43,299 nucleotides of DNA from Bacilli bacterium (GTDB lineage: Bacteria; Bacillota_I; Bacilli_A; RF39; UBA660): the NCBI GenBank assembly GCA_045580645.1, contig JAZNOG010000039.1:1-43299 (forward strand). The letters are read 5' to 3'. The position numbers and the translations under genes were made by a program. The notes under the pieces were generated by a model, which worked only from the letters and a program-made list of their open reading frames with translations, was not told where the DNA came from and searched no databases. Shown in pieces: positions 29,747-41,859 of the stretch. Each line of letters starts with the position of its first letter. The stretch's first letter is position 1.

Positions 29747-30436
29747 TTAAGCATTTTCTTTAATAACGCCATAAATTAAATCATCAAGCATTTTAGTTTG
29801 ATTATTTTCAAAAGCTTTCTTAATCTCTTCTAAATTACTCTTAATAAAATTTACAAGCTTTTCAAGTTTTGGTAATAATTCTTTTAAAGATAAACTATCA
29901 ATAATTATTTCTAAATTATTTAACTTAGAATACTTACCATAACTATCATTTTTAATATAATTTTCATACAAATTCTTAAAAGATACTAAATCAATGTTAT
30001 TAAATCTTTCATCCTCAAGTATCTTAATTGTTGTATAAATGTAACTATTGTTAATAGATTTGTCAAGTATTGTCTCCCCTTTTTTATTCCTTATATTTGG
30101 TATAAACATATCAATCTTTAAAAGTTGATTTATAATACCCATAACATCCAAATATTTTTTAGTCACAAGTATATGCGCAAATGTATCACCATCATTATTT
30201 TGATGATTTACATTCCATTCTTTTCTCTTCATGTATTTTAATACCAATTCATAAGAACCCTTTTTCAATAAATATGTTAAAACATCATCACCATTTTGAT
30301 TTGTTTCATTTATATCTACTATTCTTTTTGCTAGAATTTTATCCACTAAATCTAAATGTCCTTCATTAATAAGTTCAAATAAATTGAGCGGAACTTCTTC
30401 GCACATCCTTATCGCGCTTTCTTCATCATAAAACAT
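29747..30436 (-). CDS. Ankyrin-repeat protein
   Basis: About three ANK-like repeats, for example NQNGDDVLTYLLKKGSYELVLKYM, NNDGDTFAHILV and NKKGETILDKSI. Confidence 0.65.
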   Translation of the reverse strand: MFYDEESAIRMCEEVPLNLFELINEGHLDLVDKILAKRIVDINETNQNGDDVLTYLLKKGSYELVLKYMKRKEWNVNHQNNDGDTFAHILVTKKYLDVMGIINQLLKIDMFIPNIRNKKGETILDKSINNSYIYTTIKILEDERFNNIDLVSFKNLYENYIKNDSYGKYSKLNNLEIIIDSLSLKELLPKLEKLVNFIKSNLEEIKKAFENNQTKMLDDLIYGVIKENA

Positions 30437-37799: not shown

Positions 37800-38267
37800 C
37801 TACCATCTATAATGTGCAAATGCCTTATTAGCTTCTGCCATTCTGTGAGTATCTTCACGTTTTTTAACTGAAGCTCCTATTCCATTTGAAGCATCAATAA
37901 TTTCATTTGCTAACTTTTCAGCCATACCTTTACCGCCTCTAAGTCTTGCATAATTAACTAACCATCTAAGTCCTAAAACTTGAGCTCTTTCTTCAGAAAC
38001 TTCAATTGGAACTTGATAATTAGAGCCACCAACACGACGAGATTTAACTTCAAGTGCTGGTTTTATATTTTCAAGTGCTTGATTAAATACTTCCATTGGT
38101 TCTTTACCAGTTTTTTCTTTAATCATGTTAAATGCATCATATAAGATTTTTTCTGATTTACCACGTTTTCCATCTATCATCATAGAGTTAATTAACTTAG
38201 TAACAACTTTAGATTTGTATATTGGATCTGGTAAAACATCTCTCTTAACTGCACGTTTCTTACGCAT
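37800..38267 (-). CDS. rpsG: 30S ribosomal protein S7
   Basis: Typical S7 sequence ending in [10 protein letters not shown]. Confidence 0.97.
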
Positions 38268-38285
38268 ATTTATCCTCCTTTATTA

Positions 38286-38696
38286 TTATTTTCCTTTTTT
38301 AGTTCCATATTTAGAACGAGCTTGTTTACGGTCTTTAACCCCTTGAGTATCCATTGTTCCACGAACAACATGATAACGAACACCGATTAAGTCTTTAACA
38401 CGACCACCACGAATTAGAACAACACTATGTTCTTGTAAGTTATGTCCTTCTCCAGGAATATAAGCATCCACTTCTTTACCATTACTTAAACGAACACGAG
38501 CATATTTTCTCAAAGCTGAGTTTGGTTTTTTAGGTGTCTTAGTTCCTACACGAATACATACCCCACGTTTTTGTGGTGAAGGTATTTCATAAGATTTCTT
38601 CTCTAATGTATTAGTTCTAATTCCTAATACTGGAGATTTACTCTTTCTAACCTTATCAGTTCTCTTTTTTCTAACAAGTTGATTTATTGTTGGCAT
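38286..38696 (-). CDS. rpsL: 30S ribosomal protein S12
   Basis: [10 protein letters not shown]... and KKPNSALRK. Confidence 0.97.
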
Positions 38697-38789
38697 AACG
38701 TCTCCTTTCTACACATATCCAGGTGTATCTTTTTTCATTTTTTTAAATAGGCCTGCCTAAACACACCTAAATAAAATTCAAACACCAGT

Positions 38790-38818
38790 AATATATCACT
38801 AAGTAACAAATTTGTCAA
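38790..38818 (-). promoter_or_regulatory. str-operon promoter
   Basis: On the minus strand: TTGACA (38818-38813), 17 nt, TATATT (38795-38790). Confidence 0.6.
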
Positions 38819-38894
38819 TTAGTTTTAGTTATTTTTTTATTTTTTACAATCACTCTAATAATATATGCAAAAAATAACTTTTAATAAACAAAAA

Positions 38895-39815
38895 CTACCA
38901 TCCTTTATCTAAATCGAAATATTTTGAATAATCATAACTAATTTGCTTACCACTTTTAGTATCAATCCATCCTTTAAAAGAATGAGACCAATTAGTTAAT
39001 TCCAAAGAACTTTTACCCCTTAATTTTTTTAGCACTTTATCCATTGTATTTAATTCTTCAGAAGAAAACAAACTATTATCACACTCCAAAATCGGCTTAA
39101 ATAAAATATAATCTTCTTCATTATTTACAATTTCTACATAATTATGTTTAATTAAAAAATTAAGACAAGCATCCTTTTTATCAATAACCGGTCCATAATC
39201 ACCATGTGCATATTTTAAATTAGTAATAGAACTTCCTCTTTCCTTAAAAGACTCAAAATCAATAGCAAAAAGATTTTTCATTATTTGGGTTCTTGTTAAA
39301 TAATTATCTTTTAGAACATACAAAAATACATTAACAGTTTTAATATCAATCTCTAATTTTATTAAATCCAAAATCTTAAAATAAATTTTATCATCTATTT
39401 TATTTCTATTACTATTCAAAATCTTTAAAAATTCAGCCTTATTATTTTCAATACTCTTATAAATAGAAATATACTGATTTTGAGGCAAAGACATAGCATT
39501 TTCATACCTAGTAACAGTTTTTTTACTCCAGTTTAAAGCAGAAGCAAAAAGTTCTTGAGATAGATTATAAAATTTTCTTATTTCTTTTAACTTTTCAAAA
39601 CTTAATCCATTTAATTTTAAATACTCATTATAAATTAAATAAAAAGACTCATTTAAATTAGCATTAACTAACTCATTGCCACAACAAGAACAAATGAAAA
39701 CTTCTTCCTTAACACATACATCACTTCCACGAACAGTATAAATATTTTCTACATTTTTTTTATCATAAGAAACATCCTTATCACAAAAAAAACAATAAAC
39801 TTTTTTATCCATCAT
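38895..39815 (-). CDS. Fusion antitoxin: MqsA-like Zn-ribbon plus XRE-HTH N-terminus, and a Panacea (DUF4065/SocA-like) C-terminus
   Basis: The N-terminus is CFFCDK...FICSCCGNE, then IRKFYNLSQELFASAL..SKKTVTRYENAMSLP, following the pattern of E. coli MqsA. The C-terminus is LTRTQIMKNLFAIDFESFKERGSSITNLKYAHGDYGPVI...LELTNWSHSFKGW, typical of DUF4065. Confidence 0.75.
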   Translation of the reverse strand: MMDKKVYCFFCDKDVSYDKKNVENIYTVRGSDVCVKEEVFICSCCGNELVNANLNESFYLIYNEYLKLNGLSFEKLKEIRKFYNLSQELFASALNWSKKTVTRYENAMSLPQNQYISIYKSIENNKAEFLKILNSNRNKIDDKIYFKILDLIKLEIDIKTVNVFLYVLKDNYLTRTQIMKNLFAIDFESFKERGSSITNLKYAHGDYGPVIDKKDACLNFLIKHNYVEIVNNEEDYILFKPILECDNSLFSSEELNTMDKVLKKLRGKSSLELTNWSHSFKGWIDTKSGKQISYDYSKYFDLDKGW

Positions 39816-39827
39816 AACACCTCACAA

Positions 39828-40187
39828 CTAATAACTTTCATGAAAAGAAATACATATAATACCTCTACCATTCATCGTTAATTTAATATAAACCATCTTA
39901 CTATTTATTAACTTTTTAAAAATATAAACTTCAGAATTCATATCTCTAGAAAAATCAAAATCCCTATCCACTTTAATATAATCAGAAACTTCTAATTTAT
40001 AAACATGATCCCATATTTCTTTAACATTCATAATTCCTATATCAATCAAAGCTTGTTTAGCAGAAATAATTTTCCCATTCGTTTTTATCTTTCTATATCC
40101 TACAAAATAACAATTACCCTTTCTTATTTCTCTCTTACATATATTTAAAAAAGATTTTACTGCACTTAAATCAAGAACACTTAACAT
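39828..40187 (-). CDS. MqsR-like toxin (119 aa)
   Basis: By-eye alignment to E. coli MqsR: LSAVKSFL vs LSQVKKLV, KLEVSDYIKVD vs GLSESDFYKSM, EVYIFKKL vs DVYRPRL, and VYIKLT..IICISFHE vs VYLKIT..LIVSFKE. The toxin-first gene order and the 12-nt gap to the antitoxin match mqsRA. Confidence 0.6.
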   Translation of the reverse strand: MLSVLDLSAVKSFLNICKREIRKGNCYFVGYRKIKTNGKIISAKQALIDIGIMNVKEIWDHVYKLEVSDYIKVDRDFDFSRDMNSEVYIFKKLINSKMVYIKLTMNGRGIICISFHESY

Positions 40188-40207
40188 CCTACCTCCTGAA
40201 AAAATCT

Positions 40208-40252
40208 ATAACAAGATAACAACATTATAAAGTATTTCAAAATTGGTGTCAA
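40208..40252 (-). promoter_or_regulatory. Consensus promoter plus direct-repeat operator candidate of the TA module
   Basis: On the minus strand: TTGACA (40252-40247), 17 nt, TATAAT (40229-40224). This is followed by TTGTTAT c TTGTTAT (40222-40208), which lies before the SD. Confidence 0.65.
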
Positions 40253-40312
40253 CTGTCTCCAAAAAAATAAAATAAAAAAGATTTAGCATTACAACCAAAT
40301 CCATTCTTCATT

Positions 40313-40603
40313 CTACATATGTCTAGTTCTTTCATATGATTTAAAATTATCATGACTTTCCAAACGTTTTTTCTCTTCCACAGCAGTTTTCTCGCGTCTA
40401 TTCCAAAAATCTGCAAAAAGTATATGTATAGCAGCATCATAATAATCAAAACGTAAAGAAAAGTAATTTTCCCCATCTTTAATCAGCTCAAGCAAAATAA
40501 AAGCCACTTCTTTACAACTTAAAGCTAAACTAATAATACTCATAGCTTTATAAAATTTAATTTTTTTATCAATTTTATCTAATCTTTCAAAACCCTCTTG
40601 CAC
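40313..40603 (-). CDS. Hypothetical 96-aa helical protein
   Basis: GTG start with the SD AAAGGAGTG 5 nt upstream. It has its own TTGATT-17-TATAAT promoter (40656-40628) and a weak hairpin plus long T-run downstream. Confidence 0.55.
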   Translation of the reverse strand: MQEGFERLDKIDKKIKFYKAMSIISLALSCKEVAFILLELIKDGENYFSLRFDYYDAAIHILFADFWNRREKTAVEEKKRLESHDNFKSYERTRHM

Positions 40604-40659
40604 AATAACACTCCTTTCAATTTAGATATTATATCTTAAAAATATATAATAATCAATAA

Positions 40660-41859
40660 TTATTTTATTTTAATAACCATCTTTCTAATGAAAACAAAAA
40701 CAAAAATTATCAAAAACAAAACACACAAAACTAAAATAACTACACCAACATTTCCTTTAAGATATTTAAAAATATCAAAATGAATATCATCTTCTAAATA
40801 TAACTTTATTTCATCAAGAACTTCTCCATCATAATATATAAATAAACTACCAATATAATCCCCTTTTTCAAAAGAATTATCAATAACTTCATAACCAACA
40901 TACTCTGTCTTTATATCTTTCTCATAATCATTTTCTAAATAATAACTATAATATTTATTACTCTTTAAATATATTTTTTCTTCTTTTAAATACTTAGTAT
41001 CAAGTTCTTTTAAAATATCATTACTAGAAATAATAACTTGATAACCATAATTATTCATATAATATTCATAAATCTTTTTAGAATCAACAAAATGATTAGG
41101 AACATTACTAGCATTTAAGGTAATAAGCATATAATTAACATCATTATAAGAAGCAATTGAAGCTAAACAATAACCTGCTTTTACATCATTACCGGTCTTG
41201 CCTCCAATTAAATAAGGCATTGAAATATCAAACTTATCAAAATAATAATCTATTGTATGTTCTAACAAAACACCTGATGCATTATAAGATAAAGTTCTTA
41301 CAATTTTATTAAAAACTTCATTATTTAAAGCATATTTAAACAAAATATATATATCCCTAGCAGTAGAATAATTTTTCTTATCATCAAGTCCAGTTGTATT
41401 TGCAAAATGAGTATTAGTCATACCAAGTTCTTTTGCCTTTTTATTCATTTCATTAACAAAATTATTAACAGAACCAAAAGTAAGCCTAGCTAAAGCATTC
41501 GCACAATCTCCACCACTAGAAAGTAAAAGACCATGCAACAAATCCATATAAGAATAATTAGTATTAAGTTTTAACCCAGAAAGTTGAACATCATAAGCAA
41601 AATCTTTAACATCAGCATAAATTATTTTTCCCTTAGAATTTAAATCCTGAACATTTTCCAATACCACAATTGCAGTCATTATCTTAGTTAAAGAAGCAAT
41701 ATAAGTCTTTTCATCTATATTTTTTTCATACAAAAAACTATCATCATTTAAATTAACTAATAAAACCTTTTCACTATCAAGTTTAAAACTAACAGCTAAA
41801 ACATTAAAAGGCACCATAAAAAGTAACAAAAATACAATAATTTTAATAAAATGTTTCAT
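40660..41859 (-). CDS. D-alanyl-D-alanine carboxypeptidase (PBP5/DacB/DacF type) with a C-terminal membrane anchor
   Basis: SLTKIMT (SxxK), GGKTGN (KTG), a signal peptide and a C-terminal TM helix. The start is set at MKHFIK (41859). Confidence 0.88.
   Translation of the reverse strand: MKHFIKIIVFLLLFMVPFNVLAVSFKLDSEKVLLVNLNDDSFLYEKNIDEKTYIASLTKIMTAIVVLENVQDLNSKGKIIYADVKDFAYDVQLSGLKLNTNYSYMDLLHGLLLSSGGDCANALARLTFGSVNNFVNEMNKKAKELGMTNTHFANTTGLDDKKNYSTARDIYILFKYALNNEVFNKIVRTLSYNASGVLLEHTIDYYFDKFDISMPYLIGGKTGNDVKAGYCLASIASYNDVNYMLITLNASNVPNHFVDSKKIYEYYMNNYGYQVIISSNDILKELDTKYLKEEKIYLKSNKYYSYYLENDYEKDIKTEYVGYEVIDNSFEKGDYIGSLFIYYDGEVLDEIKLYLEDDIHFDIFKYLKGNVGVVILVLCVLFLIIFVFVFIRKMVIKIK

Follow-up and report, generated by a model that had tools for sequence, protein, structure and literature searches.

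What is the two-gene cassette that separates dac, a gene for a D-Ala-D-Ala carboxypeptidase, from the rpsL promoter in a Bacilli bacterium of the UBA660 lineage, and how might its two products act on each other? We analysed a stretch of 43,299 nucleotides (contig JAZNOG010000039.1 of assembly GCA_045580645.1, hereafter the window), for which a first-pass annotation from the sequence alone had proposed a toxin-antitoxin (TA) module: an MqsR-like toxin gene, a 12-nt gap, and a gene fusing an MqsA-type antitoxin to a Panacea domain, all behind a perfect promoter of their own and without mobility genes. Very probably, the locus is a type II TA cassette of the MqsR:PanA class that was inserted between dac and the rpsL promoter, with an RNase as toxin, the ZBD of the antitoxin as neutraliser, its helix-turn-helix (HTH) as repressor, and Panacea in a regulatory or sensory role. 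The features of the locus, in the direction of transcription, are as follows.

40625..40648, minus strand: left of the two copies of an imperfect ~20-nt direct repeat, TTATATATTTTTAAGATATAATAT (aligns to sister contig L065)
38877..40625, minus strand: inserted segment of about 1.75 kb holding orf96, the TA promoter and candidate operator, toxin and antitoxin (absent from sister contigs; ends approximate to about 20 nt)
40313..40603, minus strand: orf96, an orphan inside the inserted segment, with GTG start and Shine-Dalgarno GAAAGGAG
40243..40262, minus strand: operator candidate TTGGAGACAGTTGACACCAA, near-palindromic (core 40245..40260) and overlapping the -35 box (from conservation)
40224..40252, minus strand: sigma-70-type promoter TTGACA-17-TATAAT (same layout in relatives)
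40208..40222, minus strand: tandem heptamer TTGTTATcTTGTTAT in the 5' leader, not conserved
40192..40197, minus strand: Shine-Dalgarno AGGAGG of the toxin gene (read from the sequence)
39828..40187, minus strand: toxin gene, 119 aa, MqsR-like RNase of the PanA-associated MqsR clade (predicted from PF15723, AF2 model, hhalign residue mapping and conservation)
39816..39827, minus strand: 12 nt between the genes, with GAGGTG as Shine-Dalgarno of the antitoxin (from the sequence)
38895..39815, minus strand: antitoxin gene, 306 aa
39672..39803, minus strand: MqsA-type zinc ribbon (C8, C11, C42, C45), antitoxin residues ~5-48 (Cys conservation, TIGR03830, model)
39411..39614, minus strand: XRE-type HTH, antitoxin residues ~68-135 (PF01381, fold matches)
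38916..39344, minus strand: Panacea (DUF4065/SocA-like) domain, antitoxin residues ~158-300 (PF13274, model)
38858..38878, minus strand: right copy of the imperfect direct repeat, TTATTTTTTGCATATATTAT (aligns to L065)

The proposed layout stands: an ORF check finds both minus-strand ORFs intact at these positions, separated by 12 nt, and all of the protein motifs quoted in the first-pass annotation occur in the translations. The antitoxin starts with ATG-ATG, and the public gene call takes the second ATG, giving 305 aa. The promoter agrees with the consensus at 12 of 12 positions (40252..40224) and is the top-scoring promoter match of the region; as a class, consensus-like promoter sites are not enriched (19 found vs 18.8 expected). 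The placement is also as described, with a PF00768 match identifying dac on one side, the rpsL promoter and gene on the other, and no mobility genes among the annotated ORFs of the window. The window holds no further paralogues of either gene, an Rfam scan of 38000..41000 gave no match, and avoidance of GCU, the cleavage site of E. coli MqsR, was uninformative (5.6 and 8.7 sites per kb in the TA genes vs 9.5 for the strand).

That the cassette is an insertion upstream of the str operon is borne out by two sister contigs (L065 and L066), in which S12 is identical to that of the window and the site is empty, dac being followed directly by the rpsL promoter. Both are collinear with the window on either flank (274/278 nt identical on the rpsL side, 88% at the 3' end of dac), and because they pair an identical S12 gene with an empty site, the window carries an insertion of about 1.75 kb. 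Its two ends align to a single copy, TTTATATTTTTTCACATATATTAT, in L065; the flanking repeat may represent a duplicated target or a site of recombination, or alternatively may have arisen by chance in AT-rich DNA. Exact-pattern scans of metagenomes for the occupied site, with orf96 and with the antitoxin/rpsL junction, found nothing. We considered orf96 as a third TA component and rejected it: it has no Pfam, PHROG or PADLOC match, no homologues besides itself among 5.8 billion proteins, and no counterpart in the flanks of related loci, and it is probably not part of the TA system.

The toxin matches the Pfam MqsR family PF15723 (E=1.8e-5) with 25.5 bits vs a cut-off of 26.2, just 0.7 bits under the gathering threshold, in an alignment spanning profile positions 24-95 of 95. 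Among 35 close toxin relatives, 31 match PF15723 at E<=0.001, and these match no other family. A fold comparison was needed because PDB sequence searches, whether by the single toxin sequence or by a profile of 35 sequences, failed to retrieve MqsR and returned only chance matches to PARP1 and S3. The AlphaFold (AF2) model (pLDDT 87.7, pTM 0.81) has the RelE/MqsR alpha-beta fold, and in a Foldseek search of the PDB its top two matches are E. coli MqsR chains (3hi2_B and 3hi2_D; probability 1.00, TM 0.61 by query and 0.73-0.78 by target, Foldseek E-value only 1.7e-3), with the next match at an E-value about 10 times worse and a TM of 0.36. Such a fold prediction had been set beforehand as a test of the MqsR-like reading, which comes through it. 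Because the PDB sequence and profile searches miss MqsR and hhalign aligns the two proteins with low probability, the assignment rests on Pfam and the predicted fold. E. coli MqsR requires K56, Q68, Y81 and K96 for toxicity (PMC2791442). By hhalign, K72 (at least 90% conserved) corresponds to K56, the invariant Y100 to Y81, and H116, an invariant His, to K96, with Q68 left in a gap; K72, Y100 and H116 are candidate active-site residues.

The antitoxin divides into the parts that had been read from its sequence, an MqsA-type zinc ribbon and XRE HTH followed by a Panacea/DUF4065 half. NCBIfam TIGR03830 matches residues 8-129 above its cut-off (62.9 bits vs 61.8); the score of the protein with the Pfam MqsA model PF15731 is below the cut-off (18.4 vs 30), and this model is matched by 97 of 100 wider relatives. 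All four cysteines of the CxxC...CxxC ribbon occur in each of 32 close relatives, their conservation in 100 distant ones is 90% or higher, and PF01381 (HTH) matches at residues 76-111. In the profile search that had been proposed for the C-terminal half, PF13274 (Panacea) matches residues 178-283 at E=1.5e-14, scoring 55.3 bits where the cut-off is 25.7 and spanning profile positions 1-112 of 113. The model of the antitoxin (pLDDT 90.6, and about 86-98 in the Panacea region) shows a beta-ribbon over residues 6-42 and the two-domain fold of MqsA, and its top Foldseek match is full-length MqsA (3gn5_A; E=1.4e-4, probability 1.00, 131 alignment columns for the 132-residue target), with a low TM-score because the orientation of the domains is flexible. 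Its HTH fold also matches that of HigA2 (rmsd 1.0 Å), and a PDB sequence search with the antitoxin alone found only HigA2-type HTHs.

Co-occurrence of the two genes in other genomes, named beforehand as a test of the pair, is seen in 38 of 41 related genome loci, where a toxin match lies upstream of the antitoxin gene; 3 of the 38 are only partial matches, and in most of the 38 the match covers almost all of the toxin, with 12-40 nt between its end and the antitoxin match. In all three contig sets examined, the toxin match is directly upstream of the antitoxin gene. The reading of the module as a toxin-first type II TA pair is supported. A survey of the fusion architecture, which the first-pass annotation had called for, found at least 232 clusters of ZBD-HTH-Panacea proteins at 50% identity, and all 100 representatives sampled from the wider family match TIGR03830 as well as PF13274. 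The nearest annotated plasmid homologues of the antitoxin are proteins of C. estertheticum (29% identity over 98% of the length) and B. cereus (30% over the N-terminal 145 aa).

For the operator, the annotation had pointed to the TTGTTAT repeat, a proposal that we reject: the repeat is absent from the homologous promoters of relatives, and 15 of 100 shuffles of the AT-rich window contain a TTGTTATcTTGTTAT-type repeat with at most 1 mismatch. The near-palindrome over the -35 box is the better candidate. The window sequence TTGGAGACAGTTGACACCAA differs at 2 positions from a family consensus 16-mer, GGTGACAATTGACACC. Of 39 distinct upstream regions, taken from relatives with protein identities of only 40-79%, 38 keep this 16-mer, and its consensus bases are complementary in 7 of the 8 mirrored position pairs (for 6 of these 7 in 27 or more of 38 sequences, and for the central pair in 25). 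Each locus has one such site, which in every case lies over the -35 box and precedes the start codon of the toxin by 49-90 nt; the 16-mer occurs nowhere else in 413 kb, and once in the window vs 0.02 sites expected by chance. It is retained even at L017, where the antitoxin is an orphan. The -35 hexamer itself makes up part of the conserved 16-mer. No other direct repeats or longer inverted repeats were reported in 40150..40330.

The same annotation had taken the combination of toxin and fusion antitoxin to be uncharacterised, and this does not hold. Among the annotated toxin domains beside Panacea antitoxins, MqsR-like is the most frequent (n=90) in Kurata et al. (2022; PMC8832971), who also describe a toxic Herbaspirillum MqsR:PanA pair whose PanA fails to rescue E. 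coli. MqsR:PanA pairs in which the antitoxin has the ZBD(MqsA)-HTH-Panacea layout were validated, and dissected by truncation, in Ernits et al. (2023; PMC10440598), with representatives from Bacillus fungorum (WP_099686063.1/WP_099686064.1) and Lactobacillus rossiae (WP_017263062.1/WP_017263061.1). The window cassette is a further member of this published, validated architecture, already named by RefSeq annotation. Nor is there support for a toxin opposed by two antitoxin solutions at once: in the B. fungorum system, the ZBD or ZBD-HTH of PanA neutralises, whereas Panacea or HTH-Panacea does not (PMC10440598). The window pair shares with the Ernits et al. class its Firmicutes hosts, the order of zinc ribbon, HTH and Panacea in one polypeptide, and the MqsR-type partner. 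The window pair belongs to a clade of uncultured low-GC gut Bacilli, and its antitoxin has 306 aa vs 349 aa in B. fungorum PanA. Both toxins carry a conserved Tyr in the last-but-one strand (Y100 here, Y97 in B. fungorum MqsR, where its substitution abolishes toxicity; PMC10440598). With E. coli MqsR/MqsA (3HI2, 3GN5), the cassette shares the toxin-first operon, the predicted RelE-like toxin fold, equivalents of K56 and Y81, the N-terminal Zn ribbon and C-terminal XRE HTH of MqsA, and a candidate palindromic operator in its own promoter. Sequence identity to that pair is about 15-18%, the window toxin exceeds MqsR by 21 aa, has a long N-terminal helix and carries His for K96, the antitoxin has an extra Panacea domain of about 150 aa, and the candidate operator is a single GGTGACAATTGACACC site over the -35 box vs AACCT-N3-AGGTT in E. 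coli (PMC4894380). Single-domain PanA/PanT pairs also place a PF13274 domain in a conserved two-gene TA locus (PMC8832971), with Panacea as the neutraliser there and the zinc ribbon expected to be so in the window protein. SocA of the Caulobacter type VI system SocA/SocB contains a Panacea domain as well, but is a ClpXP adaptor for a replication-blocking toxin of a different family and has neither ZBD nor HTH.

These comparisons bear on two readings that would divide the work between the proteins differently. The toxin could be catalytically inactive or have another activity, leaving the pair mainly as a transcription-factor module, as the His at the place of Lys96, the unalignable Q68 and the Pfam score under the cut-off would allow. 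We think this quite unlikely, since H116 is invariant and lies within an ISFH[EK] motif common to toxins that adjoin MqsA-Panacea genes on Clostridium and Bacillus plasmids, a combination that speaks for selection and against decay. Among RelE-superfamily RNases, His often serves as general acid/base. Toxicity is moreover established for the related toxins of B. fungorum and L. rossiae (PMC10440598). Still less probable in our judgement is that Panacea is the functional antitoxin, by direct binding or as a ClpXP adaptor in the manner of SocA, with the MqsA part serving only as repressor. Stand-alone Panacea domains do bind and neutralise toxins directly (PMC8832971, PMC10440598), and SocA carries the same domain; against this, in the B. 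fungorum truncations the ZBD suffices, the zinc-ribbon cysteines are invariant, and the NCBIfam SocA model NF047745 gives no match to the window antitoxin at E<=1 (and matches only 8 of 100 wider relatives).

Two further readings concern what the cassette is for. It may primarily serve abortive infection or phage defence, with Panacea sensing a phage product or infection cue and freeing MqsR allosterically; this would be compatible with the TA mechanism, and we regard it as a tentative possibility. Ernits et al. favour a sensor role for Panacea in multidomain PanAs (PMC10440598), E. coli MqsRA has been described as a phage-defence system (PMC13409141), the phage protein family phrog_10390 matches the three-domain antitoxin over its full length (E=5.9e-22), and relatives adjoin Mrr_cat and, on a Clostridium plasmid, AbiEi and an N6-methylase. 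However, no PADLOC model matches the toxin and only weak HTH-level ones match the antitoxin, a relative is found in only 1 of 50,697 phage records, the neighbours in the window are housekeeping genes, and the literature, in its accessible text, offers no phage-protection data for any MqsR:PanA pair. Just as tentatively, the cassette may be a module by which mobile elements ensure addiction or stabilisation, one that landed in the chromosome and does nothing there beyond its own maintenance. The pair moves as a unit among unrelated neighbourhoods (T4SS/TraG genes, including the coupling-protein and lysozyme genes of a conjugative element, priA-HSP20, Mrr), has relatives on Bacillus and Clostridium plasmids, occupies in the window a site that is empty in the sister contigs, and has left decayed copies in which the toxin is lost or truncated (L017, L029, L015, L035, L038). 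Yet neither the insert nor the window contains mobility genes, both window genes are intact and keep every family-invariant residue, and the pair is found widely among gut Bacilli with small genomes, which tend to shed useless DNA.

As a type II TA cassette of the MqsR:PanA class, by analogy with its homologues, the locus would work as follows. The RelE-fold endoribonuclease would cut mRNA and arrest growth until bound and neutralised by the N-terminal zinc ribbon of the antitoxin; the XRE HTH would dimerise and repress the operon, most likely through the near-palindrome over the -35 box; and the C-terminal Panacea domain would probably not neutralise the toxin, acting instead in a regulatory or sensory role that controls the timing of toxin release. 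A literature search found no work after 2023 on the role of Panacea. No terminator was found between the antitoxin and rpsL by pattern scan, and the fold there is not better than that of shuffles (z=-0.69). On a more speculative reading, which we consider improbable, Panacea would in this clade be a sensor of phage or stress cues that unlocks ribbon-bound MqsR allosterically, and the single conserved operator over the -35 box would let the perfect-consensus promoter fire once the antitoxin is lost; with no terminator before rpsL in this genome, transcription would then also run into the S12-S7-EF-G-EF-Tu operon.

With the architecture already published, the cassette carries little weight as a discovery. 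It does provide a single, sharply conserved candidate operator and, where E. coli MqsR has its catalytic Lys, an invariant His, both of which are easy to test, and the occupied and empty sites by the str operon are a clean example of a TA cassette inserting without a mobility gene. The MqsR:PanA clade of the cassette is a common one among uncultured gut Bacilli with small genomes (about 40 species-level genomes), and if the read-through reading is true, activation of the toxin would in this organism be coupled to transcription of translation genes.

Both open reading frames (ORFs) of the cassette are present on the minus strand where the first-pass annotation had placed them, and they lie among the following features of the window, all on the minus strand:

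40313..40603, orphan ORF of 96 aa with a GTG start and a good Shine-Dalgarno sequence, upstream of the cassette promoter
40252..40224, TTGACA-17-TATAAT promoter, 12/12 match to consensus
40208..40222, heptamer repeat TTGTTATcTTGTTAT in the leader
39828..40187, toxin gene, 119 aa
38895..39815, antitoxin gene, 306 aa
38818..38790, rpsL promoter

The 12-nt gap between the two genes contains a GAGGTG ribosome-binding site, and the antitoxin begins ATG-ATG, the second ATG being used by the public gene call (305 aa). The only Pfam match of the toxin is MqsR_toxin (E=1.8e-5, 25.5 bits, slightly below the 26.2 cut-off), and 31 of 35 close relatives match this model and no other. Plain sequence and profile searches with the toxin did not retrieve MqsR from the PDB; its confident AlphaFold model (pLDDT 87.7, pTM 0.81) is matched best by the two E. 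coli MqsR chains of 3HI2 (probability 1.00, target TM 0.73-0.78), the runner-up having a ten-fold worse E-value and a TM of 0.36. The antitoxin clears the NCBIfam MqsA-family model TIGR03830 (62.9 vs 61.8 bits, residues 8-129), Pfam HTH_3 (residues 76-111), and Panacea PF13274 (55.3 vs 25.7 bits, residues 178-283), all four of its zinc-ribbon cysteines are invariant, and its model (pLDDT 90.6) is closest in the PDB to full-length E. coli MqsA (3GN5). It also matches the phage protein family phrog_10390 over its full length. The first-pass domain reading, an MqsR toxin opposite a zinc ribbon, helix-turn-helix (HTH) and Panacea fusion, is therefore correct.

Toxicity of E. coli MqsR requires K56, Q68, Y81, and K96 (PMC2791442). 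In a profile alignment, K56, Y81, and K96 correspond to K72, Y100, and H116 of the toxin, and Q68 has no alignable counterpart; across 35 family members Y100 and H116 never vary, and conservation of K72 is at least 90%. The C-terminal motif ISFH[EK] (residues 113-117, window 39837..39851) is invariant within the clade and places a histidine at the position of the catalytic Lys96 of E. coli MqsR. The same motif occurs in toxins adjoining MqsA-Panacea genes on Bacillus and Clostridium plasmids.

The first-pass annotation had known of no characterization of this combination, but such fusions have been validated and truncated (Ernits et al., 2023; PMC10440598), and the argument for novelty therefore falls. 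Kurata et al. (2022; PMC8832971) report MqsR-like as the commonest annotated toxin domain beside Panacea antitoxins (n=90), count N-terminal HTH domains in 343 PanAs, and date the MqsR-DUF4065 link to 2013. The MqsR:PanA pairs that Ernits et al. validated come from Bacillus fungorum and Lactobacillus rossiae, and their antitoxins are annotated 'Panacea; ZBD (MqsA); HTH'. For B. fungorum the authors report that the zinc-binding domain (ZBD) or ZBD-HTH neutralizes the toxin, that Panacea or HTH-Panacea fails to do so, and that substitution of Y97 abolishes toxicity; they propose Panacea as a sensor.

The pair recurs in other genomes, a point on which the first-pass reading had been made to depend. 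Clustering at 90% identity gives about 143 antitoxin and 89 toxin clusters, nearly all from gut metagenomes. Scanning one genome per species yielded 41 loci with antitoxins 40-64% identical, mainly in uncultured Bacilli, 'Tenericutes'/Mollicutes MAGs, Ca. Pelethosoma, and Ca. Onthocola; a toxin match lies upstream of the antitoxin gene in 38 of them, in most cases at near-full length and ending 12-40 nt before the antitoxin match. The toxin is undetectable in three of the 41 and only partially matched in three more, the usual picture of toxin-antitoxin decay. At locus L017 (2694..3004) the toxin gene is cleanly missing and the orphan antitoxin keeps the operator/promoter GGTGACAGTTGACACC 42 nt before it; truncated antitoxins or partial toxin matches at L029, L015, L035, and L038 suggest decaying copies. 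More widely, 232 clusters (50% identity) reached E<=1e-30 when 1.84 billion representatives were searched exhaustively with the profile; among 150 listed, most proteins are 320-350 aa, with matches covering the N-terminal half, the C-terminal half, or the whole profile. TIGR03830 and PF13274 occur together in all 100 wider-family representatives sampled. The fusion is also carried by Bacillus cereus-group megaplasmids and Clostridium plasmids, under the RefSeq names 'type II TA system antitoxin MqsA family protein' or 'SocA domain-containing protein'. On the Clostridium estertheticum plasmid pCF008-B (L063, 2498..4019), the MqsR-like gene (112 aa, annotated as hypothetical; 92% hhalign probability against the toxin family) comes after the MqsA-Panacea gene, and gene order in the wider family thus varies; AbiEi-family and N6-DNA-methylase genes are nearby.

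The surrounding genes vary between loci, from T4SS coupling-protein and lysozyme genes to priA-HSP20 and an Mrr-like nuclease, and the rpsL neighbor was found at none of the related loci. One widespread variant (antitoxin P0050, 132 contigs; L001-L004), beside T4SS coupling-protein (TraG/TrwB) and M23-peptidase/lysozyme genes, probably sits on an integrative conjugative element. In the window, the cassette is flanked by the D-Ala-D-Ala carboxypeptidase gene dac (PF00768) and rpsL-rpsG-fusA-tuf; the remaining annotated ORFs are mainly housekeeping (SMC, SHMT, iPGM, a MiaB-like radical-SAM enzyme), and none has a mobility function. Bacteria seldom carry ankyrin repeats; a 229-aa ankyrin-repeat protein (Ank_2/Ank_4; 29747..30436, minus) is encoded beside a hybrid histidine-kinase/receiver protein.

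Two metagenome contigs with an S12 protein identical to the window's (L065, L066) are 99% identical to it through the rpsL promoter and 88% through the dac 3' end. In both, the rpsL promoter comes immediately after dac, and the window therefore carries a surplus of about 1.75 kb (approximately 40625..38877) comprising the 96-aa ORF and the cassette operon, with a roughly 20-nt imperfect direct repeat on both sides and no mobility gene within. The varied cassette contexts elsewhere favor insertion in the window over deletion from the sister contigs. The 96-aa ORF finds only itself among 5.8 billion proteins, and Pfam, PHROG, and PADLOC gave it no match. The stretch from the antitoxin stop codon to the rpsL promoter (38697..38894, minus) has no predicted intrinsic terminator, and transcription from the perfect-consensus cassette promoter could therefore read through into the str operon.

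Almost no intergenic sequence is common to the window and its relatives. The exception is a near-invariant 16-mer, GGTGACAATTGACACC, with the -35 hexamer as its 3' part. Of 39 distinct upstream regions of relatives, 38 contain it, once per locus and 49-90 nt ahead of the toxin start codon; it occurs nowhere else in 413 kb. The window copy, GGAGACAGTTGACACC (40245..40260), has two mismatches (0.02 chance matches expected). Consensus bases are complementary in seven of eight mirrored position pairs, six of these in at least 27 of the 38 sequences and the central pair in 25. Because the 5' half, GGTGACA, is not part of the -35 box, its conservation calls for more than promoter function. On sequence grounds, the 16-mer is the best operator candidate for the dimeric HTH; its sequence is unlike the E. 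coli MqsA site AACCT-N3-AGGTT (PMC4894380). The TTGTTAT repeat, the first-pass operator candidate, is not conserved in relatives and is weak against chance. In many relatives an ATG-TAA or ATG-TAG 'start-stop' directly precedes the toxin Shine-Dalgarno sequence, and 9 of 39 upstream regions contain a mini-ORF of at most six codons preceded by its own GAAAGGAG (leader features at L001, L008, L011-L013, L020, L022, L024, L025, L032, L035, and L043). These may provide translational control of the toxin in the relatives; the window has no such feature.

Taken together, the cassette is very probably a functional type II MqsR:PanA system, in which, by analogy with characterized systems, the toxin would be an RNase neutralized by the zinc ribbon, the HTH would autorepress the operon through the predicted palindrome over the -35 box, and Panacea would have a regulatory or sensory part. 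It falls wholly within the known MqsR:PanA class, with nothing beyond it, and its biological role could be phage defense, or it could be a selfish stabilization module stranded in the chromosome.
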